Shown here piece after piece: positions 1-14,504 of a stretch of DNA of 14,504 nt. The stretch is from sequence record NC_042564.1. The stretch is one strand, 5' to 3'. The translations under genes and the position numbers were made by a program. The DNA comes from Escherichia phage Bf23. Within the stretch, counting starts at the first letter, position 1. Every line of letters starts with the position of its first letter. The notes below the pieces were generated by a model. The model worked only from the letters and a program-made list of their open reading frames with translations, made no database searches and was not told the DNA's origin.

Positions 1-35
1 TGATCACCAGATTGTTTACGATAAGTACGGCTCAT
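1..35 (-). CDS. 5'-partial CDS (N-terminus only, continues beyond window start)
   Basis: ATG at 33-35 on minus strand with GGAGGT Shine-Dalgarno (revcomp of 39-44); reads MSRTYRKQSGD... leftwards out of the window. Confidence 0.35.
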   Translation of the reverse strand, partial: MSRTYRKQSGD

Positions 36-82
36 ATTACCTCCATTAAGTCTTTTAAATTAACCTAATGTGGATGAATTTT

Positions 83-112
83 ATTATACATAAATTATTT
101 ACCTGTATGCAG
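83..112 (-). promoter_or_regulatory. putative sigma70 promoter (weak -35) for the partial gene at 1-35
   Basis: minus-strand TATAAT (revcomp of attata 83-88), 17-18 nt spacer, -35-like CTGCAT/TGCATA; weaker match than the other promoter copies. Confidence 0.3.
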
Positions 113-114
113 AA

Positions 115-152
115 AAACCCCAGACTACTTATTCAATAGCTGGGGTTTGTTA
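115..152 (-). terminator. putative rho-independent terminator downstream of CDS 157-471
   Basis: inverted repeat ccccag(117-122)/ctgggg(140-145) with A-run on plus strand before it = U-run after hairpin on minus strand; loop is long (17 nt). Confidence 0.5.
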
Positions 153-156
153 TTAA

Positions 157-471
157 TCACAGATCGGGGCGTTCATCTTCGAAACAGCCTGAGCTAATTC
201 CTTCTCCGAATCCTACAAAGCCATCAAATTCATCATTTGAAATATCCGTAATCATTGCTTCCATTTTCCTAATTTCCGAGGTTTTCATACCTGCTTTACT
301 ATTCTTAAAGTGTTTGCGAGGGTTCCCACACATCCAACAAGAACAGATGCAAGGAGTAGTAGTGATAATACCTAACCGTTTAGGGCTTTCTTCATGTGGG
401 AAGACTGTCCAATACTTCTTGCGGTTGTTCTTTACACGTTGCCGGTGATGACGTCTTAATGCTCGATCCAC
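157..471 (-). CDS. hypothetical basic, Cys-rich protein (possible zinc-binding), 104 aa
   Basis: ORF track; ATG at 469-471 with AGGAGA SD 7 nt upstream; Arg/Lys-rich N-terminus followed by CxCxCxxC cluster; terminator-like hairpin downstream. Confidence 0.6.
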   Translation of the reverse strand: MDRALRRHHRQRVKNNRKKYWTVFPHEESPKRLGIITTTPCICSCWMCGNPRKHFKNSKAGMKTSEIRKMEAMITDISNDEFDGFVGFGEGISSGCFEDERPDL

Positions 472-552
472 ACATTTCTCCTAAAACTTGGGAGATAAAT
501 GGAGTTTGCTCGACTACCTTACGTAGTTCGTAGAAACCGTATCCAAGCCCCA

Positions 553-921
553 TTACATCGCCTGAGTAAATGTACGACTAATAACGTCGTTCTGCTGTTC
601 ACGTGTCAGTGCGTTAAAGCGCACAGCATAACCAGAAACACGAATGGTTAACTGAGGGTATTTTTCAGGATGTTTCTGGGCATCCAAAAGCTGATCACGA
701 CTTAACACATTGACATTTAGGTGTTGACCACCTTCAATTTGAGGGGCGACCTCCACCTTGACTTCACGAAAGGATTCAGAGTCAAAGTGAGGTGTGATAC
801 CTTCTAGATCTTCAACTAGAACTTTTTGTTTAAGTTCACCATCTTTAGAGTACAGTTGAATAATCTGATTATCATGAACAAGATTAATTACGCCAGACTT
901 AAGATTTTGATATGCTTTCAT
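553..921 (-). CDS. grcA: GrcA/YfiD-like autonomous glycyl radical cofactor (pyruvate formate-lyase C-terminal domain homolog), 122 aa
   Basis: translation contains [11 protein letters not shown]...[40 protein letters not shown], matching the glycyl-radical motif RVSGYAVRF and C-terminus of PflB/GrcA as I recall them; ATG at 919-921 has AGGAGA SD; the longer ORF-track start at 996 would overlap tRNA 935-1011. Confidence 0.85.
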
Positions 922-934
922 TAGCTCTCCTGTT

Positions 935-1011
935 TGGTAGTTAGTAGTGGATTTGAACCACTGTAGTCGCTCCGTATGAAGGAGGTGCATAACCACTCTG
1001 CCAACTAACTA
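935..1011 (-). tRNA. tRNA-Met (anticodon CAT; could be elongator Met, initiator or Ile2-lysidine type)
   Basis: minus strand; encoded CCA (tgg 935-937), T-arm agtgg/atttgaa/ccact, acceptor 939-945 pairs with 1005-1011, anticodon loop TTCATAC with one mismatch in the anticodon stem. Confidence 0.6.
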
Positions 1012-1106
1012 TTATGTTTTACTAGACTAAGTAAGTATTCTTTGTACTCTTTAGACCAATTAGCTTTTTTAAACTTTCCTGGACGCATAGTCTTAATTCC
1101 TAGATT

Positions 1107-1183
1107 TGGTACTCCGGGAGGGATTTAAACCCCCGATCTCTCGGTTATCAGCCGAGTGCTTTAGATCGCTAAGCTACCGAAGT
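1107..1183 (-). tRNA. tRNA-Ile (anticodon GAT)
   Basis: encoded CCA, T-arm with loop TTTAAAT, perfect anticodon stem ctcgg/ccgag with loop CTGATAA, D-stem gctt/aagc, 7-bp acceptor with one G-U. Confidence 0.75.
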
Positions 1184-1184
1184 A

Positions 1185-1391
1185 TTAACATTTAATTGCA
1201 GAACGTTTACCATTTCTAGGCGCACCTGGAAGTCGTGCACGTTCTGCCATTCTTCGCTTAATCTTTGAGATATTTTCTAGTGTTTGTTCTTCAGGCTTAA
1301 TACCTGAAACACTACACCACTGATTACCATCCCATGCGGTAATGATCATAACACCATTACTCATGATCTTTTCTGTAAAAGTAATCCTCAT
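1185..1391 (-). CDS. hypothetical small protein (68 aa), translationally coupled to upstream ORF
   Basis: ORF track 1185-1412; ATG at 1389-1391 overlaps the TAA stop of ORF 1391-1684 (TAATG); longer start would require in-gene initiation. Confidence 0.4.
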   Translation of the reverse strand: MRITFTEKIMSNGVMIITAWDGNQWCSVSGIKPEEQTLENISKIKRRMAERARLPGAPRNGKRSAIKC

Positions 1392-1684
1392 TATAGCAAC
1401 TCGTCTAAGCAAGAGGTATAATGGAATTTAGCTTCTCCAGTCTTATCTATTTCTACCTCAGTTCGTGGTACTTGACGAACTACACCATGAATCATCTTAT
1501 AGCGAACGCCTTTAGCTGGTTCATGATCTTTTGGAAATACTTGTTTGACCGTTACTACTTTATACTCTTCACGCGGTGTTAATACAACTACTTGATCACC
1601 CTCTTTGATTTTCCAGGAAGATGGAAATTCATAGGTATACCTTTGGCCACCAGTTTGGAATACTACAGAAAGATAACGTTTCAT
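1391..1684 (-). CDS. hypothetical protein, 97 aa
   Basis: ORF track; ATG at 1682-1684 with GAGGG SD; located just downstream of promoter 1715-1743. Confidence 0.55.
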   Translation of the reverse strand: MKRYLSVVFQTGGQRYTYEFPSSWKIKEGDQVVVLTPREEYKVVTVKQVFPKDHEPAKGVRYKMIHGVVRQVPRTEVEIDKTGEAKFHYTSCLDELL

Positions 1685-1714
1685 TTGGTTTCCCTCTCAT
1701 TAATTTATATAAAT

Positions 1715-1743
1715 ATTATAACAAGAAATAAGAGAGAATGCAA
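1715..1743 (-). promoter_or_regulatory. sigma70 promoter (T5 early-promoter-like)
   Basis: minus strand TTGCAT (revcomp 1738-1743) - 17 nt - TATAAT (revcomp 1715-1720), A/T-rich UP region, conserved motif aatgaatttttaa shared with other copies. Confidence 0.65.
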
Positions 1744-1758
1744 ATGAATTTTTAAGTT

Positions 1759-1833
1759 TGGTGCTCCCACTAGGAATCGAACCCAGCTCAGATGCTTACA
1801 AGGCAACTGCATCGCCAACAATGCTTTAGGAGC
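1759..1833 (-). tRNA. tRNA-Thr (anticodon TGT)
   Basis: encoded CCA (1759-1761), T-arm ctagg/aatcgaa/cccag, D-stem GCAT/ATGC, anticodon loop CTTGTAA, acceptor with one G-U; one U-U mismatch in anticodon stem. Confidence 0.6.
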
Positions 1834-1843
1834 GATAATCCCA

Positions 1844-2008
1844 TTATTTCAATGGGATTTCTTTTTCAAATACAGGGGATTTATCTGACATTACTGTCAT
1901 TGCCAACTGCTGAAGAAACTCGAAAGTTAGCTTTAAACGTTCTTCGCCTAATTCAACCTCAACGTATTTCTTTTGTTTGTCAACCTTTAATTTTAGGTTA
2001 TCAGCCAT
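1844..2008 (-). CDS. possible small ORF (54 aa), overlapping stop of upstream ORF
   Basis: ATG at 2006-2008 overlapping TGA of ORF 2001-2222 (ATGGCTGA); weak SD; below ORF-track size cut-off. Confidence 0.3.
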   Translation of the reverse strand: MADNLKLKVDKQKKYVEVELGEERLKLTFEFLQQLAMTVMSDKSPVFEKEIPLK

Positions 2009-2222
2009 CTTCGGATTCTCGTTGCTCAGCTACTGCTAGCCAGTCTGGTAAAAGAAACTTAGTACGAAACTCTTCATAAGATTCTTCTGGATAAAAGCTA
2101 AAACCTCCTTTCTCATCATTCAAGATAACAGAGCCGTCAGTTTGTTCATATGCTCGATATGTTTCTCCAATAATGATAACTCGCTTATCAGTACTTTTAT
2201 TACGAAACTCAAAAACGTGCAT
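2001..2222 (-). CDS. hypothetical protein, 73 aa
   Basis: ORF track; ATG at 2220-2222 with AAGGAAA SD. Confidence 0.5.
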   Translation of the reverse strand: MHVFEFRNKSTDKRVIIIGETYRAYEQTDGSVILNDEKGGFSFYPEESYEEFRTKFLLPDWLAVAEQRESEDG

Positions 2223-2238
2223 AACGTTTCCTTAAAGT

Positions 2239-2314
2239 TGGAGCGGCTAGAGGGAATCGAACCCTACTCAGCGAGGCTTGGAAGGCCTGCGACACAACCC
2301 GTGTGCTTAACCGC
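2239..2314 (-). tRNA. tRNA-Gly (anticodon TCC)
   Basis: encoded CCA, T-loop TTCGATT, anticodon loop CTTCCAA (plus-strand aggc/ttggaag/gcct), acceptor 2243-2249 pairs 2308-2314 with one G-U. Confidence 0.6.
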
Positions 2315-2322
2315 TTATTGTT

Positions 2323-2398
2323 TGGCTGGAGAAGGAGGAGTCGAACCTACCATTAACGGAGTCAAAGGCCATTGTGTTAACCGTTACACTACTCTCCA
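2323..2398 (-). tRNA. tRNA-Gln (anticodon TTG)
   Basis: encoded CCA, U1-A72 and G73 as in bacterial tRNA-Gln, D-stem GTGT/ACAC, anticodon loop CTTTGAC; anticodon stem has C31-U39 mismatch. Confidence 0.55.
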
Positions 2399-2404
2399 AT
2401 TATT

Positions 2405-2480
2405 TGGCTGGAGTGCCTGGGATCGAACCAGGAACCTTCGGAGTCAGAGGCCGACGATCTGCCAATTGATCTACACTCCA
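2405..2480 (-). tRNA. tRNA-Gln (anticodon CTG)
   Basis: encoded CCA, perfect T-arm cctgg/gatcgaa/ccagg, perfect 7-bp acceptor (2409-2415/2474-2480), D-stem GATC/GATC, anticodon loop CTCTGAC; same C31-U39 mismatch as its neighbour. Confidence 0.6.
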
Positions 2481-2489
2481 AGAATGCTA

Positions 2490-2726
2490 TTAACTAGACA
2501 CTGGTTCTGCTGGCTGAGATACGGCAGGCTGTTCTAATGTATCTGGTGCTGATACAGAGAAAAGAGCTTGTAATGCTGCAATATCACGCTCGTAAGTTTC
2601 AATACGAGTAGTAAGAGTATCTACCATCTGTTTATGATAGGCTAAGTTATTCTGAGATTCATCTCGAAGAGTTTGCAGTTCTGCAAGACGTGTTAACATA
2701 ATTTCACTAATTAAAGCATTACTCAT
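2490..2726 (-). CDS. hypothetical coiled-coil protein, 78 aa
   Basis: ORF track; ATG with AGGAGA SD; start overlaps stop of 2719-2916 (coupled). Confidence 0.5.
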   Translation of the reverse strand: MSNALISEIMLTRLAELQTLRDESQNNLAYHKQMVDTLTTRIETYERDIAALQALFSVSAPDTLEQPAVSQPAEPVSS

Positions 2727-2916
2727 TTGTTTCTCCTAAATTTTCCGGTTCTTCTAAACGTTTGCCTTCATGATCTACTCGAATAACTCCGCATCCTTCG
2801 CAAACCACAACTGCACCATAACCTTCTTTGACTTCGGCTTCTGTAATCAGACCAGATAAGTCACCAGTATCTCTGCCCCACATATCAATGGAGCATTGTT
2901 TGCAGAAATCAGCCAT
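2719..2916 (-). CDS. hypothetical zinc-ribbon-like protein (two CxxC pairs), 65 aa
   Basis: ORF track; ATG at 2914-2916 with AGGAAA SD; CKQC ... CEGC motif. Confidence 0.55.
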   Translation of the reverse strand: MADFCKQCSIDMWGRDTGDLSGLITEAEVKEGYGAVVVCEGCGVIRVDHEGKRLEEPENLGETNE

Positions 2917-2941
2917 ATTTTATTTCCTATTTAAGTTAATT

Positions 2942-3018
2942 TGGGGTGGCTAGTGGAATTCGAATCCACATAGGCCTGATTCACAATCAGGATCATTAAC
3001 CAATTATGATATAGCCAC
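2942..3018 (-). tRNA. tRNA-His (anticodon GTG)
   Basis: encoded CCA, C73 discriminator, perfect T-arm gtgga/attcgaa/tccac, perfect anticodon stem cctga/tcagg with loop TTGTGAA, perfect acceptor 2946-2952/3012-3018. Confidence 0.8.
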
Positions 3019-3132
3019 AATTGAAAACTCGCAGGGTTAGCGAAACCATCCTCAATTAGCATGTTCTAGAATACTAATCAAGTTATCTCCTATTGCACGC
3101 AGCTCAAGACGAGTACGAATTTTCAATTGTGG
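3015..3132 (-). ncRNA. candidate structured RNA / precursor-processing stem flanking the 5' end of tRNA-His
   Basis: 17-nt inverted repeat ccacaattgaaaactcg (3015-3031) vs cgaattttcaattgtgg (3116-3132), one mismatch, enclosing 84 nt with no credible ORF; the first arm includes the first 4 nt of tRNA-His. Confidence 0.3.
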
Positions 3133-3247
3133 CGGCTCTCAGAAACTCTTCTATTCTAGCCCCAGAAGCTTACCCCCGAACGCCTGTCGGGAAAGTCTTT
3201 CCAAGAGCATCAAATAGCACCGTTACACTTTGAGCCATTGATATATC

Positions 3248-3332
3248 AAGGAACAGAAGGATTTGAACCTTCACGAGATAGACCATTTATCTCAACCGCT
3301 TTTAAGGTATATTTCTAGGAGTGGATGTTCCT
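3248..3332 (-). tRNA. tRNA-like gene, class II length (85 nt), isotype undetermined (possible Leu-TAA) or pseudogene
   Basis: perfect T-arm gaagg/atttgaa/ccttc and perfect 7-bp acceptor (3249-3255/3326-3332) but no canonical anticodon stem; CCA not encoded; contains hairpin agata/gaccatt/tatct. Confidence 0.35.
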
Positions 3333-3386
3333 AGTAAACCTATTCGGCAGTCCCGTCTACCAATTCCGGCATATTCCAAGAATTTT

Positions 3387-3560
3387 TTATAAACCAGCAG
3401 AAGCCTCATTTAAAGCATCAACAATAGCTTCACGCTGGGTCATTCCATACCCGGTGGAGTCTAGGTGAGGCAAATAGGCTGCCCACCCATTATCTGTTTC
3501 ATGAAGGAATGCTTTAAATTTTTTACCGTCCTTCATTGTTACAGTAACTGTTTTGCTCAT
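3387..3560 (-). CDS. small ORF (57 aa), possibly HicB/UPF0150-like fold
   Basis: ATG at 3558-3560 with AAGGAA SD; translation ...ETDNGWAAYLPHLDSTGYGMTQREAIVDALNEASAGL resembles the HicB N-terminal domain pattern; below ORF-track size cut-off. Confidence 0.4.
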   Translation of the reverse strand: MSKTVTVTMKDGKKFKAFLHETDNGWAAYLPHLDSTGYGMTQREAIVDALNEASAGL

Positions 3561-3580
3561 AAGGATTCCTTATAGTTAAT

Positions 3581-3670
3581 TGGAGGAAGGTAATGGAGTC
3601 GAACCATCACCGTATCACTACAGCGGGCTAGTTTTCAAGACTAGTTGCGTACCACTACGCCCTACCTTCC
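3581..3670 (-). tRNA. tRNA-Ser (anticodon TGA)
   Basis: 90 nt with long variable arm; encoded CCA; perfect anticodon stem ctagt/actag with loop CTTGAAA; perfect acceptor 3585-3591/3664-3670. Confidence 0.65.
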
Positions 3671-3677
3671 ATTTGTT

Positions 3678-3768
3678 TGGCGGAAGAGGAGAGATTTGAA
3701 CTCTCAAGCCGTTTTACCAGTCAGCCACTTTCCAAGCGGTTTTCGTCGCCAATTCGATTTGCTCTTCC
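3678..3768 (-). tRNA. tRNA-Ser (anticodon GGA), tentative
   Basis: 91 nt class II; encoded CCA, G73; perfect T-arm gagag/atttgaa/ctctc; perfect acceptor 3682-3688/3762-3768; anticodon loop TTGGAAA with one mismatch in stem; 3-bp D-stem. Confidence 0.5.
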
Positions 3769-3801
3769 AATAATAAGATGATGCCTCTATCACACCAGGC
3801 A

Positions 3802-3880
3802 GTTACGCCTCGCTGGGATTCGAACCCATTAAAACAGCTCAACCGAGATAGTAGGTTTAATTTACTCTGACCATCAAATT
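3802..3880 (-). other. orphan T-arm-like element (degenerate tRNA remnant?)
   Basis: tggg/attcgaa/ccca T-arm-like hairpin at 3814-3828 but no pairing partner for an acceptor stem and no anticodon arm. Confidence 0.25.
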
Positions 3881-3957
3881 TGGTGCGTGACAAGGGATTC
3901 GAACCCTCAAAACCCGACTTCTAAGGACGGTATGTATGCCAATTCCATCAATCACGC
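3881..3957 (-). tRNA. tRNA with anticodon TAG (Leu-type anticodon) on a short-variable-arm scaffold; isotype uncertain
   Basis: encoded CCA, T-arm aaggg/attcgaa/ccctc, acceptor 3885-3891/3951-3957 with one G-U, anticodon loop CTTAGAA with one U-U mismatch in stem, 3-bp D-stem, only 5-nt variable loop. Confidence 0.4.
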
Positions 3958-3962
3958 GTATT

Positions 3963-4036
3963 TGGTGGAGAAAGAGGGAGTTGAACCCTCGTTTTCTGCG
4001 TGCAAAGCAGATGTTCTACCATTAAACTATATCCCC
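3963..4036 (-). tRNA. tRNA-Ala (anticodon TGC)
   Basis: encoded CCA, perfect T-arm gaggg/agttgaa/ccctc, perfect anticodon stem tctgc/gcaga with loop TTTGCAC, acceptor shows G3-U70 (Ala identity pair) plus one mismatch. Confidence 0.65.
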
Positions 4037-4062
4037 AAATTCTTTAGTTTACTAAGGCTATT

Positions 4063-4230
4063 AGCTCGGCGTAACTATAGCACCTTCGCTTCGAGCGGAA
4101 GGAACTACGTCATCTCGCAAACCCGATACACTATTCAGTTGCCGCTGAATCTAGTGGACTAATCTAGAACCTCTCCCAAATCGTAGGGATCGTGCTTTTT
4201 GGCAGCCAGTCCTAGGTCGAGCTAATACCT
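4063..4230 (-). ncRNA. candidate structured RNA in promoter-proximal leader (no ORF)
   Basis: long-range inverted repeat ggctattagctcgg (4063-4076) vs gtcgagctaatacc (4217-4230) enclosing about 140 nt with internal hairpins (ttcag/ctgaa 4133-4148; ctag/ctag); no ORF with RBS. Confidence 0.3.
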
Positions 4231-9165: not shown

Positions 9166-9849
9166 TCATCTATTTTTCTTAATACTTTTAGGATCTTTCC
9201 CTGTTAGGGACTTATACCTTTTCCTTAATCCAGTATCAGACAATCCTAGTTCTTTGGAGGCACGAATCCAGGAATATTTAGATACCCAGTACTCTATTTG
9301 CTCCACAGTAATATCTGGATTTATAGTTATCTCTTTAGGAGTACATGATTTACAGTGTGTTGCTCTTGAGCTAATTTCGCAGTGACAAATAGCACACGTA
9401 TTTACAGTCCTTTCTGTATACCTGCCAATATTTTTGCCTGCATGAGTAGGTGTTAGTGCATGGCAATTTGGGCATAGGAGGGCTAAGTTATCCCATTCAT
9501 TATTATAGTGATTTCCATCCTTATGTTCAAGTTCTAAAGGAATTGGTTTATCTAACCAACTTTCTAAGCCACAACTCTCACATTTATGTGGTTTTAGCCC
9601 CTCGTTAAGAATTTTATTCTTTAGTTTATAGGAAGAAATAGGGCTGCCGTTATATAAATACTCTGTTGCAGACTTATATTTATTATCATACTGCCTATTC
9701 GCAGGGATAACTACTATTCCTAGTTTTCCTAAATATGCTTCCAAAGTGTTCGAGGAGCAGGATAGCATTCTTGCTATCTCTGCTTTAGATTTTCCCTGAG
9801 CTATCCACTGAGCTATTTCTTCCTTTCTATCTAGTATATCAGTTCTCAT
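9166..9849 (-). CDS. HNH homing endonuclease with HTH-like regions and an extra Cys/His cluster, 227 aa
   Basis: ORF track; HNH motif CESCG ... LELEHKDGNHYNNEWDNLALLCPNCHA; additional CAICHC ... HCKSC; helix-turn-helix-like segments at both ends. Confidence 0.85.
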   Translation of the reverse strand: MRTDILDRKEEIAQWIAQGKSKAEIARMLSCSSNTLEAYLGKLGIVVIPANRQYDNKYKSATEYLYNGSPISSYKLKNKILNEGLKPHKCESCGLESWLDKPIPLELEHKDGNHYNNEWDNLALLCPNCHALTPTHAGKNIGRYTERTVNTCAICHCEISSRATHCKSCTPKEITINPDITVEQIEYWVSKYSWIRASKELGLSDTGLRKRYKSLTGKDPKSIKKNR

Positions 9850-9872
9850 AGTTTATGACTTTTTAATTAAGT

Positions 9873-9950
9873 TGGTGGCTCCCCGAGGATTCGAACCTAC
9901 GTACCTTCCAGTTATGAGCTGGGTGCTCATACCATATGAGCTTGAGAACC
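9873..9950 (-). tRNA. tRNA with anticodon CAT (Met, initiator or Ile2 type)
   Basis: encoded CCA, acceptor 9877-9883/9944-9950 with two G-U, D-arm gctc/gagc, anticodon loop CTCATAA; T-stem has only 3 good pairs. Confidence 0.5.
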
Positions 9951-9956
9951 AGAATT

Positions 9957-10045
9957 TGGCGGAAGAAGTGGGAATCGAACCCACAAGGCTATATTTCAAA
10001 CCGACAGATTAGCAATCTGCTGCAATACCGTTATGCTATTCTTCC
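9957..10045 (-). tRNA. tRNA-Ser (anticodon GCT)
   Basis: 89 nt class II, encoded CCA, G73, perfect T-arm gtggg/aatcgaa/cccac, perfect acceptor 9961-9967/10039-10045, anticodon loop TTGCTAA. Confidence 0.65.
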
Positions 10046-10059
10046 GAATTTATAAATAT

Positions 10060-10088
10060 ATTATATTAGAAATTTAGCTTCATAGCAA
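10060..10088 (-). promoter_or_regulatory. sigma70 promoter (T5 early-promoter-like), inside 3' end of CDS 10066-10584
   Basis: minus strand TTGCTA (revcomp 10083-10088) - 17 nt - TATAAT (revcomp 10060-10065); A-run upstream. Confidence 0.65.
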
Positions 10089-10584
10089 GAAAATTTTTCA
10101 AGTTTTCGGTAGACATCTCATCCACATCTACAGGGGAAACAAACCCATTTAACTGTCTAGCAAACTTTTCGCCAGCAGGATCATTATCCCCAACAGCTAC
10201 CAATTTAAAAGGTAGTAATTTCAATTGCTTTAATAGCGCTTTTCCTGGAGAAGAACCCAACATTGCCAGGGCTGGATAACCAGCGTTATGTAACGCAACT
10301 GCCTTAAATACAGATTCAGCAATCAATACTACTTTTTCATCTCCATTGAGAGTTTCTAGTCCCCATACACACTGTGTAGTAGAATAAGTAAAATATCTAG
10401 CCTCAAAGGGGCACTTACCATGACCTTTTGGAGCAGAAGGATTATAAGTCTGATAGCCTCTCAACATCCCAGAGAAGTCATACAATGGGACTGTTAGCCA
10501 TCCTTCCGGGCTTAACCAGCAATGATATTTATCTGTATCAAATCCTCTAGATAAGAGATGTTCTGTTAGTTCATCAACAGTCAT
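10066..10584 (-). CDS. Toprim-domain protein (DnaG/OLD/RNase M5-type fold), 172 aa
   Basis: ORF track 10066-10635; ATG at 10582-10584 has GAGAGAGGAA SD and lies downstream of the promoter start, whereas the ORF-track ATG at 10635 lies within the promoter; motifs VVLIAESVFKAVALHNAGYPALAMLGS and LVAVGDNDPAGEKF (conserved Glu and DxD). Confidence 0.7.
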   Translation of the reverse strand: MTVDELTEHLLSRGFDTDKYHCWLSPEGWLTVPLYDFSGMLRGYQTYNPSAPKGHGKCPFEARYFTYSTTQCVWGLETLNGDEKVVLIAESVFKAVALHNAGYPALAMLGSSPGKALLKQLKLLPFKLVAVGDNDPAGEKFARQLNGFVSPVDVDEMSTENLKNFLAMKLNF

Positions 10585-10614
10585 ATTAGATTCCTCTCTC
10601 AAATTTATAAATAT

Positions 10615-10643
10615 ATTATACAGAGAATTTAGCATTCAAGCAA
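10615..10643 (-). promoter_or_regulatory. sigma70 promoter closely resembling classic coliphage T5 early promoters
   Basis: minus strand reads aaaaaattcaaTTGCTTgaatgctaaattctctgTATAATatatttataaatttgagagaggaa; as I recall it, T5 PN25 shares TTGCTT -35, CTGTATAAT, and the initial transcribed motif ATAAATTTGAGAGAGGA. Confidence 0.8.
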
Positions 10644-10759
10644 TTGAATTTTTTAACTTTTTAGAGGAAAATCACAGGATGCTTAAGGGTAGCAGGTAAG
10701 TGGTCAGGACCGAAATTTGTGACCCCACTAAAAATCTGGGGGCAATTTTTAAAGACCCC

Positions 10760-10788
10760 TTGACATTTTAGCCGGGGTAGTATAAAGT
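10760..10788 (+). promoter_or_regulatory. putative sigma70 promoter of the plus-strand cassette (divergent from 10615-10643)
   Basis: perfect -35 TTGACA (10760-10765); -10 candidates TATAAA (spacer 15) or TAAAGT (spacer 17); about 60-nt leader before AGGAGG SD. Confidence 0.55.
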
Positions 10789-10850
10789 ATATGTTATGGA
10801 TGAGTGATCAAAGAGACACACATTTTCTATATACTAGGAGGTGTCAAAAA

Positions 10851-11831
10851 ATGACAGAAGAAGTAGCTAAGAGTCCTGAAACCGTCGCTAGCGTAGCAGC
10901 AGAACTGCATCGTCACGAGGAATCAGATAAGAAAAAGTGGGAGAACGTCAAAGCCTACGAAGAAGAACATCGTGTTCACGATGATAAAGATGAAGAAGAT
11001 GACGATGATGAACATTGTCATAAATATGGAAAACATAAAATGCAAGAACCAGTAAACGTATTTACTAACGGCTTCCCTGGCATGGGTGCATTCCCAGCTA
11101 ATGCAAGTGCTTTCGGTGGAGAAGGTATGGGCCTATTCGGAGCTATCCTAATCGGTGCTCTATTAACAGGCGGATTTGGTGGTTTTGGTGGTTTTGGTCG
11201 CGGTGCTGGTGTTGCCGCTGAAGGAACCGCTGTGGACGCGATCCTTTCTAACCAAGATACTGCAAGTATTCTAGCTGCAATCAATACTACTCGTACAGAA
11301 GCTAATCAGGGCACCGGGGCTGTTCTAAGCGCAGTAAACGGTGTGGGAGCTGCTCAAGCTGCTAGCACTCAGCAAGTTCTGACTACTATCTACGGTACAG
11401 GTGCTAATCTGTCAAACCAGATCTGTGCTGAAACTCGTAACGTTATTCAGGGTCAGTTCGATCTTTCTCGTCAGATGGATCAATCTTTCGCTGCTAACCA
11501 GATCGCACGTGCTCAAGATAAGTTTGACTCTGCTCAGATTGCTTTCCAGCAGTCTATTCAGACTAACAACCAGTTTGCCGCTGTTCAGGCTCAGATGTGT
11601 GCTAACCAGAATGCTATCGAACGTCAGCTTGCCGAATGTTGCTGTGAGCTTCAGACTGCGATCGCTGGTGTAACTACTGCACGTATCCAGGACGAACTGA
11701 ATGAATGCCGTCTGCGCGAAGCAATCGCTGCAGGTAGCGGTGCAAATGGTCAGGTAATCAACCAAATCGCTGTAAGTCTTGGTGCTATCACTCAGACTCT
11801 GGCTGGTCTGCAGGCTAAACTGCCGGCTTAA
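10851..11831 (+). CDS. hypothetical low-complexity protein, 326 aa: acidic His-rich N-terminus, Gly-rich hydrophobic segment, Gln/Ala-rich helical C-terminal region with Cys cluster (ECCCE)
   Basis: ATG at 10851 with AGGAGG SD 9 nt upstream (ORF-track start 10791 lies within the promoter/leader); GGFGGFGGFG segment; opposite-strand ORFs 11018-11284 and 11412-11894 look like antisense artefacts; codons look E. coli-optimal by eye. Confidence 0.7.
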   Translation: MTEEVAKSPETVASVAAELHRHEESDKKKWENVKAYEEEHRVHDDKDEEDDDDEHCHKYGKHKMQEPVNVFTNGFPGMGAFPANASAFGGEGMGLFGAILIGALLTGGFGGFGGFGRGAGVAAEGTAVDAILSNQDTASILAAINTTRTEANQGTGAVLSAVNGVGAAQAASTQQVLTTIYGTGANLSNQICAETRNVIQGQFDLSRQMDQSFAANQIARAQDKFDSAQIAFQQSIQTNNQFAAVQAQMCANQNAIERQLAECCCELQTAIAGVTTARIQDELNECRLREAIAAGSGANGQVINQIAVSLGAITQTLAGLQAKLPA

Positions 11832-11852
11832 AATTAAGGGGAGGAGCCCATT

Positions 11853-12269
11853 ATGAGTAAATATGGTTTTGTAAACAACGGATTTAATCAACAAATGGGC
11901 TCCCAGCAGCCCGTTCCTGGTCTGGATAATCCTTACCTACAACAGTTGCAACAGCATTTAGCAGAAGCGCAACAGATGCAGCAACAACTCCAGCAAAACC
12001 CTGGAAGTGTGAGTCCTATGCAAATGATGCAGCAAATGAGCGGGCAGTCGCAAATGCCTCAACAAATGCAGCAACAGGTGCCTCAGCAGCAAGTTCAGCA
12101 ACAAACCCAACAACCGCAGGTTTCTGCGGAAGGACAGGCAGTACTAGCCCTTTTCGAAGATTTCGCAAAGACAGAGGATGGGAAACAGCTTGTATCACTT
12201 ATGGGTAAGTTTAATAGCTTCTGCCAAAGCCAAGTTGCAAAAGCTCAAAATGGTGGTAATAACTCCTAA
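11853..12269 (+). CDS. hypothetical Gln-rich (prion-like composition) protein, 138 aa
   Basis: ORF track; ATG with GGGGAGGAG SD; 21 nt after the stop of the upstream gene; long Q/M/P-rich tract then short structured C-terminus. Confidence 0.65.
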   Translation: MSKYGFVNNGFNQQMGSQQPVPGLDNPYLQQLQQHLAEAQQMQQQLQQNPGSVSPMQMMQQMSGQSQMPQQMQQQVPQQQVQQQTQQPQVSAEGQAVLALFEDFAKTEDGKQLVSLMGKFNSFCQSQVAKAQNGGNNS

Positions 12270-12278
12270 GGAGGAATT

Positions 12279-12473
12279 ATGTGTTGCAGAAAATCTGTTT
12301 CGTGCTGCCCAATGCCTGTAGCACGTTGTTGCTCTCCAGCAATGTTTACACAAATACCGGCGTTCAATCCCTTTGCCTTTAAGCCTACTCTTATCCTGCC
12401 CCCTAGAGTAGATTTTCAGTCAAGATTGGCCTCCCGTATGGGTGGTTGCTGTAATAAGAGTATATGGTTCTAA
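12279..12473 (+). CDS. hypothetical Cys-rich small protein, 64 aa (four CC doublets)
   Basis: ORF track; ATG with AAGGAGG SD that overlaps the TAA stop of the upstream gene; followed by rho-independent terminator. Confidence 0.55.
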   Translation: MCCRKSVSCCPMPVARCCSPAMFTQIPAFNPFAFKPTLILPPRVDFQSRLASRMGGCCNKSIWF

Positions 12474-12488
12474 AGAACCAAACAATAA

Positions 12489-12524
12489 AGCCCCTAGTCG
12501 AAAGACTTAGGGGCTTTTCTTTTA
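12489..12524 (+). terminator. rho-independent terminator of the plus-strand cassette
   Basis: GC-rich hairpin agcccctagtc / gacttaggggct followed by TTTTCTTTT. Confidence 0.7.
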
Positions 12525-12536
12525 TCTTAAGTACAG

Positions 12537-12576
12537 AAAAGCCCTGCGCTCTCCAGGGAACGCAGGGCTTACTTCG
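12537..12576 (-). terminator. rho-independent terminator downstream of SPFH gene (convergent with 12489-12524)
   Basis: hairpin agccctgcg / cgcagggct; on the minus strand it is followed by TTTTCTGT. Confidence 0.65.
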
Positions 12577-12593
12577 AATATTACGTGTGGGTA

Positions 12594-13541
12594 TTACTTG
12601 TTACGCATATCCATAATCATCTGGCCATCGTAACCAGTGCCAACTACTGTTTGCGGTACACCACCTTGATATTTCTGAGCACGAATCATTTCAACTTCTA
12701 GTTGTTTCCAACGAATCATCTCAGGAGTAATAGTACGTTGCAGAGCGGCGTTAGCTTCAGCTTCTTTCTTAGCTGCGTACAGTTTAGCATCTGCATCACG
12801 TTCGTTTGCAATAGCTTGGTTGTTACGAGCTTCACGATCTGCTTCTGCTTGTTTAACCTTCTGCTGTGCTTCTTGTTCAACACGAGCCAATTCAGCTTTC
12901 GCAGCATTAACTTGTTCTTCACGAACTTTGGTATTCTGTACCTGTTCCATAATTACCGGTGGCAATGTAATATCCTGAAGGAACACTTGCTTAACTGTGT
13001 AACCATAAGGGCGTGCGTACTCTTCAACTTCCTGCTGAATTGCAGTTTGCAATTGTGCTTGAATTTTAGCATCAAACAAATCTTGTGCTTTAGGTACAGA
13101 CTTACCAAACTCACGAATAGTAGATAGTAATTTCTCAGTTACATACTTATCTAGAGCCTGATCCTGGGTGCCTGCGTTAATACGGTTAATCGGTGCCTTA
13201 GAACCATCAAATTGTAACATAACAGTCAGGTCAACAGTGGATTTAAACTTATCCTGGCTAGGAACCTGAAGTTTATCTAATTTTACAGCAATATCTTTTG
13301 TACTAAAAGTATCGAAAGATGCAAATGGGTTTACAAGATGGAAACCAGGTAATACTGGGTTAGGATCTACTTTACCTAGAAATGTTTGGGTTTTAACCGT
13401 ACCATCAGAAACAATAGTATATGAATTAAAAGCTAGGATTAAACCTGCTAAACCAACTACAGCACCAATACCCCAACGTTTAATAGTGCGAATTACTTTT
13501 TGCTCAGAAGTCAGTTCTTTCATATTTTTAGTATTAAACAT
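12594..13541 (-). CDS. SPFH/band-7 (stomatin/prohibitin/HflK-HflC-like) membrane protein, 315 aa
   Basis: ORF track; ATG with AAGGAA SD; N-terminal transmembrane helix (WGIGAVVGLAGLILAF), SPFH-like core, C-terminal Ala/Glu/Gln-rich coiled coil. Confidence 0.8.
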   Translation of the reverse strand: MFNTKNMKELTSEQKVIRTIKRWGIGAVVGLAGLILAFNSYTIVSDGTVKTQTFLGKVDPNPVLPGFHLVNPFASFDTFSTKDIAVKLDKLQVPSQDKFKSTVDLTVMLQFDGSKAPINRINAGTQDQALDKYVTEKLLSTIREFGKSVPKAQDLFDAKIQAQLQTAIQQEVEEYARPYGYTVKQVFLQDITLPPVIMEQVQNTKVREEQVNAAKAELARVEQEAQQKVKQAEADREARNNQAIANERDADAKLYAAKKEAEANAALQRTITPEMIRWKQLEVEMIRAQKYQGGVPQTVVGTGYDGQMIMDMRNK

Positions 13542-13575
13542 ATATTTCCTTTGTTTTAGTTACAGTTAATAAAAT

Positions 13576-13650
13576 TGGCCGAGGTGACAGGATTCGAACC
13601 TGCATAAAGGAATTTAGAAGACTCCTGCCTCTCCCTTAGACTACACCCCG
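13576..13650 (-). tRNA. tRNA-Arg (anticodon TCT), tentative
   Basis: encoded CCA, T-arm acagg/attcgaa/cctgc, acceptor 13580-13586/13644-13650 with G-U, anticodon loop CTTCTAA with G-U in stem; D-arm poorly defined. Confidence 0.5.
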
Positions 13651-14152
13651 TTTAAGTATTTTTAAGAACTCTCGTAAAAACTCTTAAAAATACAGACGAT
13701 ACCGGGAGAGTCATAAGTCTCACTCATTAAGTATTTCAAGACAAAATACAGTAACGTCTATTATTTTCCAGTTTAAGTCAAGGTGACTTAGTGGTTATGT
13801 CCTGCGGTATGCTGAGGACTCGGTTAGGCTAGGGTCATGACTCCCCACCTTTTTGCTGCTACTCAACAGGAGTTATCGCGAATTACCTGTGCTATTGTGC
13901 ACCATTAGTGGCATCTCTCATGCCAGCATTTCCCACTTTGTGGATAGTTTGAAAAACTACTCCGATATGGAGAAAGAACTTCACTATCCTAGAATACCTT
14001 CTAAAGTTCTTCTTTAGCCTGGACATAGTTAAATCGTAATAAAACTATTCAGCAGACTGGTTGGTTAGTCTGGAACCAACTACCGCGTGGTTTAGGCAGT
14101 GCGCAACTAACCTCGGAAGCTTTTACGTTAAAAGCATCAGTTATCCAGTTCT

Positions 14153-14224
14153 TACCGTCCGTAGGATTCGAACCTACATCTTCCACCAGTTACGGCTTGA
14201 TAATACCAATTATACTAGGACGGC
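14153..14224 (-). tRNA. tRNA-like gene, isotype undetermined (possible pseudogene)
   Basis: perfect T-arm gtagg/attcgaa/cctac (14161-14177) and 6-7 bp acceptor pairing (14154-14160/14218-14224) but no recognizable anticodon stem; CCA not encoded. Confidence 0.35.
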
Positions 14225-14447
14225 AGTGTTACTACATAAGTGATTTCCACACCCCACTATTTATAAATTAGAGAAGAGTTTAGGGGAGAGGTTTCAGACG
14301 CCCCATTTTATACGTTCTAGCCACTAACCGGGATTGCCGCCCCCTGTGTACTAGTTTTACAACTAACCCACCGACTCTATTCAGTGCACTCCGGTTGGGA
14401 TTCTGCACTCAGCGTAATCGGCTCGCTGTTCCCTAATTTATGAATAT

Positions 14448-14476
14448 ATTATACAGAATTTATAAGCATTTAGCAA
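14448..14476 (-). promoter_or_regulatory. sigma70 promoter (T5 early-promoter-like)
   Basis: minus strand TTGCTA (revcomp 14471-14476) - 17 nt - TATAAT (revcomp 14448-14453); conserved motif cagaatttataagca / aatgaatttttag. Confidence 0.7.
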
Positions 14477-14504
14477 ATGAATTTTTAGAAAAATTCACTA
14501 GCAG

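Follow-up and report, generated by a model that had tools for sequence, protein, structure and literature searches.

The closest described systems to the locus studied here are GrcA (YfiD) of E. coli and its counterpart Y06I of phage T4. Oxygen cleaves activated pyruvate formate-lyase (PFL, PflB) at Gly734, and both YfiD and Y06I, once given a glycyl radical by PFL-AE, attach to the cleaved PFL and restore its activity (PMC8683613; PMC13450708). The Y06I result was obtained in vitro by Wagner et al. 2001, as cited in PMC8683613. The radical on G102 of GrcA passes to C419 of PflB, and GrcA rescues the PflB variant G734A in vivo (PMC12338860). PFL-AE binds the heptapeptide RVSGYAV, as seen in PDB 3CB8 (PMC10665898). 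YfiD's N-terminal half aids the binding of cleaved PFL and the installation of the radical and is dispensable for catalysis (PMC8683613; PMC13450708), and the N-terminus was found to be disordered in solution by NMR (PMC8683613).

Our analysis identified a gene for a protein of this kind in Escherichia phage BF23, a relative of T5. The window, i.e. the whole stretch of 14,504 nucleotides that was analysed (NC_042564.1), contains 23 tRNAs, all on the minus strand, and a coding sequence of 122 codons on the same strand (553..921; ATG 921-919, stop 555-553). This gene corresponds to BF23_00058, which is labelled 'hypothetical protein' in the genome record OR083247, and is the ortholog of T5.056. 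Positions 400-1100 of the window are 100% and positions 1-4100 are 99.98% identical to Escherichia phage BF23 OR083247.1. The ORF is a real, well-conserved gene of BF23 and, judged from its sequence, encodes a stand-alone glycyl-radical protein of the GrcA/YfiD type. The 122-aa protein begins with a segment peculiar to the T5 lineage (residues 1-31) and ends in the glycyl-radical domain (residues 61-122), in which G97 is the radical glycine.

The sole Pfam domain of the protein is PF01228 Gly_radical (residues 62-103, E 3.9e-18; score 66.4 bits, cut-off 22.2). A sequence search of the PDB returned E. coli GrcA/YfiD (6owr) as top match (E 1.5e-30, residues 48-121) as well as PflB (1cm5/1h16, E ~4e-27), where residues 61-122 correspond to PflB 698-759. 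In BLASTP comparisons with E. coli GrcA 55/74 positions were identical, with 74% identity over residues 51-122, and PHROG 1209 matched across the whole protein (4.6e-48). An earlier note, made from the sequence alone, had proposed a GrcA/YfiD-like glycyl-radical protein in a phage tRNA region, and these matches bear the proposal out. The same note described the C-terminal match to GrcA and PFL as almost residue for residue; the domain match is indeed strong, the exact figure being 77-81% over the last 62 residues, of which 48 are identical in E. coli GrcA, 49 in PflB and 50 in TdcE. This similarity is far above chance. Identities over the same 62 residues amount to 52-53 when the proteins of jumbo phages and Vibrio phages are compared. 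The motif RVSGYAVRF, to which the note had also pointed, is intact (R94-V95-S96-G97-Y98-A99-V100-R101-F102), thus keeping the context of the radical glycine, and includes the PFL-AE heptapeptide RVSGYAV in identical form. In an alignment of 29-40 phage and bacterial homologs, which took in T5-like, jumbo-phage, T4 and bacterial GrcA sequences, R94-F102 belong to 40 invariant positions between E63 and T119, and Q5 and R52 are near-invariant throughout the family. Within the BF23 protein, resemblance to TdcE and PflB is greatest in the tail following G97, the counterpart of the stretch lost from PflB when oxygen cleaves it; 20/22 of the final residues are identical to TdcE (counted by eye).

The NCBIfam models for GrcA all matched with scores under their thresholds; TIGR04365 gave 121.9 bits, below its equivalog cut-off of 170, and aligned with residues 49-122 only. 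For calibration, T4 Y06I scored 151.1 bits, also below 170, and E. coli GrcA scored 234. Since the experimentally validated Y06I fails the cut-off too, the missed threshold weakens the assignment as a strict GrcA equivalog, not the notion that the protein works like GrcA. By function and homology the BF23 protein appears to fit among the autonomous glycyl-radical cofactors, and its nearest phage clade appears to be the one with T4 Y06I. Two further assignments were considered and rejected. The PFL/2-ketobutyrate formate-lyase model TIGR01255 gave 86 bits against a cut-off of 994 and matched at profile positions 683-744 only; lacking the ~700-residue barrel and Cys418/Cys419, the protein cannot be a formate acetyltransferase. 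A class III ribonucleotide reductase (RNR, NrdD) subunit is rejected on a BLASTP E-value of 5.6 against BF23 NrdD, and the gene for the actual NrdD lies at another place in the genome. Annotations of the orthologs are diverse. T5.056 is annotated as 'putative acetyltransferase-related protein', the orthologs of DT57C, Gostya9, T5_ev219 and others as 'putative autonomous glycyl radical cofactor GrcA', and further labels include pyruvate formate-lyase, 2-ketobutyrate formate-lyase and ribonucleotide reductase subunit. The labels 'pyruvate formate-lyase' and '2-ketobutyrate formate-lyase' are misnomers.

The gene is contained in ~430-440 T5-like genome records, and tblastn searches turned up relatives in 1581 phage records, among them those of T4-like phages with ~52% identity over the full length. 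T5-like grcA sequence with ~95% identity also occurs in OR848450.1 ('Listeria phage LM 4-14-1', 6.3 kb) and in two 'Campylobacter' records, which probably represent contamination or mis-assigned hosts. Among 28 distinct T5-like ortholog DNA sequences dN/dS was 0.065 over the whole gene, with a mean dS of 0.40 (max 0.99) and a mean dN of 0.026; codons 61-122 gave 0.016 and codons 1-60 gave 0.10. The reading frame was unbroken in all T5-like orthologs examined (30; 28 distinct sequences). Both halves of the protein are thus under purifying selection. DNA identity to E. coli pflB/tdcE is just 73-75% and confined to the last 186 nt, on which grounds a recent capture from the host was rejected. With a probable host-type metabolic function, conservation in phage genomes and a place in neither the replication nor the virion machinery, the gene is an auxiliary metabolic gene of the phage, as the earlier note had supposed.

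The gene is directly preceded by a co-oriented tRNA-Met(CAT) (935..1010, minus strand), and the two are closely joined. On the minus strand, the CCA that the tRNA gene encodes at its end (937-935) is followed by AACA, the Shine-Dalgarno sequence GGAGAG (930-925, read from the sequence), CTA and the ATG. The ribosome binding site therefore starts 4 nt past the CCA, its GGAG (930-927) lies 5 nt before the ATG, and the ATG lies 13 nt past the tRNA. The nearest upstream tRNA on the same strand was tRNA-Met in 26/29 related T5-like IMG/VR loci, at a gap of 13-417 nt, the larger gaps being due to small inserted ORFs such as a 64-aa ORF with no Pfam match in T5_ev219. The distance between tRNA-Met and the ATG of the grcA-like gene is 13 nt in BF23 and T5 and 274 nt in 10/29 IMG/VR loci; many T5-like phages other than BF23 and T5 have a small ORF at this place.

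Further upstream on the minus strand follow a 27-aa mini-ORF (1005..1088), preceded by AGGA and overlapping the 5′ end of tRNA-Met by 6 nt, tRNA-Ile(GAT) (1107..1183), which belongs to the transcription unit of the grcA-like gene, and two small ORFs at the head of the unit (1185..1684), one of 97 aa (1684..1391) and one of 68 aa (1391..1185). The mini-ORF, situated between the two tRNAs, has the same position and the same length of 84 nt as T5.057. A sigma-70 promoter-like site, TTTGCA-18-TATAAT, lies on the minus strand at 1744..1715 (10/12 matches, TG before the -10 element). It occupies the position of the annotated T5 promoter P11 and is listed as a 'hypothetical early promoter' in OR083247. 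This site, ~790 nt upstream and separated from the gene by the two ORFs, the two tRNAs and the mini-ORF, is the likely start of the unit that holds the grcA-like gene. A search of the stretch from tRNA-Ile to the ATG for a dedicated promoter of the gene found none; on this strand the site at 1744..1715 is the nearest and the only good one. The description of the gene as driven from an early promoter therefore holds as to the early region, and not as to a promoter next to the gene.

Downstream and co-oriented lies a Cys-rich ORF of 104 aa (157..471, minus strand), which is found at the position of T5.055, belongs to no Pfam family and is probably co-transcribed with the grcA-like gene. It has a basic N-terminus and a …TPCICSCWMCGNPRKHF… stretch. 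A Pfam search of the neighbouring ORFs, including the two at the head of the unit, gave no significant match. An intrinsic terminator follows on the minus strand at 112..148, with a CCCCAG/CUGGGG stem-loop and a UUUUU run, and carries a terminator annotation in BF23 as well as in T5; in a 71-nt context its folding energy is -24.2 kcal/mol (z = -4.4). The order of the unit would thus be promoter, 97-aa ORF, 68-aa ORF, tRNA-Ile, 27-aa mini-ORF, tRNA-Met, grcA-like gene, 104-aa ORF and terminator.

Elsewhere in the window, a segment of ~4.26 kb (9901-14158) is absent from the 2023 BF23 genome OR083247. The segment holds tRNA-Ser(GCT) (9957..10045), tRNA-Arg(TCT) (13576..13650) and several ORFs. 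Window positions 9639-9900 map to 36000-36261 of OR083247 and positions 14159-14502 to 36244-36586, which leaves an overlap of ~18 nt, and both breakpoints fall in tRNA-like sequences. From the overlap and the location of the breakpoints, recombination between tRNA-like repeats seems to have removed the segment from the OR083247 stock. The BF23 genome paper reports no tRNA-Arg (PMC10644984), and the loss would explain this. Two weak tRNA-like elements were seen on the minus strand, one at 9876..9950 (Rfam tRNA call with 38.2 bits, no ARAGORN call) and one at 14152..14225 (ARAGORN 'tRNA-Ser' with the unusual anticodon ACT, Rfam 39.6 bits). The counterpart region of T5 is annotated with stable RNAs of unknown function, e.g. 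RNAX.

An AlphaFold2 model of the BF23 protein was obtained at moderate confidence (pLDDT 73, pTM 0.39). The model shows a helix (75-83), a hairpin (92-95/98-101) with G97 at its tip and a second helix (107-117). It superposes on PFL (2pfl) over 51 residues with 2.4 A rmsd and matches the YfiD NMR structure 6owr in Foldseek with E 2.6e-5. Residues 2-36 are modelled as four beta strands (pLDDT ~80), and a Foldseek search of this N-terminal region against the PDB gave no significant match outside the radical domain. Because the N-terminus of YfiD is disordered, we treat these predicted strands cautiously, and they may form on binding only.

The N-terminal half also distinguishes the T5 type at the sequence level. 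In hhalign comparisons of N-terminal halves, the T4/jumbo type (including Y06I) matched bacterial GrcA with 96% over all 58 columns and the T5 type matched the T4/jumbo type with 91% over residues 32-61 only, while the match between the T5 type and bacterial GrcA was weak (27%), residues 1-31 being unmatched. Neither BLAST nor HMM searches aligned the N-terminal 50 residues of the BF23 protein with E. coli GrcA. A tblastn search with the first 61 residues found T5-like phages alone, which is why residues 1-31 are considered lineage-specific. Since residues 1-31 are unlike the GrcA and T4 types, and given the role of the N-terminal half in YfiD (PMC8683613), target recognition by the T5-type protein could differ. 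The T5-type N-terminus could moreover help to explain the enigmatic N-terminal half of GrcA.

BF23 and T5 both encode a class III RNR NrdD that is 51-54% identical to E. coli NrdD (positions 49909-51783 in the BF23 record; the T5 ortholog was also located). T5-like NrdD falls into two divergent types, most sequences being at least 95% identical to that of BF23 and that of HildyBeyeler ~60%. No PflA or NrdG homologs were found by tblastn with the E. coli PflA and NrdG queries in T5 1-111000 and in the BF23 pieces fetched, the best match having an E-value of 0.43; this search covered part of the BF23 genome, and nearly all of T5, whose remainder beyond 1-111000 by annotation contains the right terminal-repeat copy. 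As NrdD is present and a phage-encoded activase was not found in these sequences, BF23 has to depend on activases of the host for both of its glycyl-radical proteins, NrdD and the GrcA-like protein. NrdD is also encoded in each GrcA-bearing phage lineage sampled, namely T5-like and T4-like phages, Vibrio phage PVA23 and Klebsiella phage K64-1, a co-occurrence that rests on few phage lineages and carries no phylogenetic control. In T4-like phages nrdG adjoins nrdD. Most of the class III RNRs characterised to date use formate, the product of PFL, as their reductant, according to PMC4493059 where it cites Mulliez 1995. A literature search on T5.056, on T5-like GrcA and on an explicit link between GrcA and NrdD in phages found nothing relevant.

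By analogy with these relatives, the best explanation, in which we have good confidence, is that the BF23 protein acts as a spare part that most likely repairs oxygen-damaged pyruvate formate-lyase of the host. That the protein keeps host PFL working had been suggested in the earlier note, and such a role agrees with the in vitro result for the full-length T4 homolog Y06I as it is cited in PMC8683613. From the established facts on the relatives and the identical RVSGYAV heptapeptide, we infer the same mechanism for BF23. The gene would be transcribed early within a mixed tRNA/mRNA unit. Host PflA would then recognise the RVSGYAV loop and abstract a hydrogen from G97 to give the glycyl radical, and the C-terminal domain (~61-122) would replace the glycyl-radical domain that PflB, and possibly TdcE, loses on cleavage at Gly734. 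T5-type phages break down the DNA of the host and stop its gene expression, and the infected cell would therefore be without new PflB or GrcA. A cheap part of 122 aa could maintain the existing PflB pool under microaerobic or fluctuating oxygen conditions. The maintained PflB would preserve ATP, via acetyl-CoA and acetate, as well as formate, which would serve as the reductant for a class III RNR of the kind the phage encodes. The benefit to the phage would thus lie in ATP and formate supply.

Some features of the protein suggest other roles. The T5-type proteins may make up a sub-class of spare part with a function of its own, in which the N-terminal module alters target or timing and the chief benefit is formate for the phage NrdD rather than energy; once the host has been shut off, the T5-type protein might, for example, displace the radical domain in PflB/TdcE that is intact or has not been activated. 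The selected ~31-residue N-terminus with its predicted beta structure, the PflB/TdcE-like tail and the lack of an activase in the phage sequences searched hint at such a sub-class, which we nevertheless regard as doubtful. The lineage-specific and conserved N-terminal ~31 residues could also belong to a decoy or inhibitor that mimics the PflB radical domain and soaks up PflA or blocks PflB/TdcE, thereby shutting down host fermentation, and a tail closer to TdcE/PflB than to GrcA (20/22 with TdcE) could compete with the native domains. We judge this role to be unlikely, because the effect of the T4 homolog on PFL is restoration and not inhibition (PMC8683613), because the invariant radical glycine and catalytic loop and a dN/dS of 0.016 exceed what binding alone would need, and because inhibition of PFL would starve the formate-type NrdD of the phage.

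It is very unlikely that the protein is a spare part for another glycyl-radical enzyme, either the phage NrdD or specifically host TdcE. Such a target might be considered given that the phage NrdD is oxygen-sensitive and no phage activase was found in the sequences searched, that some GenBank records call the ortholog an RNR subunit and that the C-terminal tail is nearest to TdcE (50/62). Similarity to the C-terminus of BF23 NrdD is undetectable, however (BLASTP E 5.6), which excludes NrdD as the partner, and the domain shares 77-81% of its residues with PflB, TdcE and GrcA. Rescue of TdcE, a PFL paralog, is a variant of PFL repair and no true rival to it. Hardly credible is a non-functional remnant of host pflB, tdcE or grcA that is merely carried along, as might be thought from the 73-75% DNA resemblance to host genes in only the last 186 nt and from the 'hypothetical protein' label of the BF23 record: it is excluded by the selection analysis (dN/dS 0.065 with dS up to 0.99, frame intact in 30/30 orthologs examined), and the proper ribosome binding site, the conserved position after tRNA-Met, the retention of the gene in ~430-440 genomes and a host DNA identity too low for recent capture also speak against it.

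A spare-part phage protein of this kind has been known since the T4 test in 2001, and annotation as GrcA already exists for close orthologs. The BF23 protein is thus already known in kind, and our finding opens no new class of biology. It corrects the 'hypothetical protein' label of the BF23 record and the misleading ortholog labels 'pyruvate formate-lyase', 'ribonucleotide reductase subunit' and 'acetyltransferase'. It would also mean that T5-like phages share with T4 an investment in the upkeep of an anaerobic enzyme of the host, and the pair of NrdD and GrcA-like protein in T5-like phages, with host activases needed for both, is in keeping with adaptation to the gut, where oxygen is low and fluctuating.

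Among the known systems, Vs.6 (Y06I) of T4 resembles the BF23 protein in being phage-encoded, ~120 aa long and alignable over the full length with 52% identity, in the shared MKAYQ start, the phrog_1209 assignment and the identical RVSGYAVRF, and in that T4-like phages also carry NrdD. The C-terminal domain of Y06I is close to that of E. coli GrcA (59/62), whereas that of BF23 is equidistant from GrcA, PflB and TdcE (48-50/62), and the N-terminal half of the T4/jumbo type is clearly homologous to bacterial GrcA (hhalign 96%), whereas the BF23 type matches from residue 32 on only. T4-like phages have their own NrdG activase and none was found in the T5 and BF23 sequences searched; Y06I has been tested biochemically, whereas the T5 type is known from sequence. 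E. coli GrcA (YfiD, 6owr) is likewise a stand-alone glycyl-radical protein of similar size with the same C-terminal fold. Host grcA is an FNR/stress-regulated chromosomal gene, whereas the BF23 gene is viral and lies within a tRNA cluster. The C-terminal domains of PflB (698-759) and TdcE share 49/62 and 50/62 residues with the BF23 protein, which is without the barrel of these enzymes. The nearest relatives outside the T5-like phages are the proteins of jumbo phages (K64-1, SE_PL and relatives) and Vibrio phages, with 57-60% identity over the full length; they share the DAQ and ISRTFT signatures in the radical domain with BF23 and, unlike BF23, have N-terminal halves of the T4/bacterial type.
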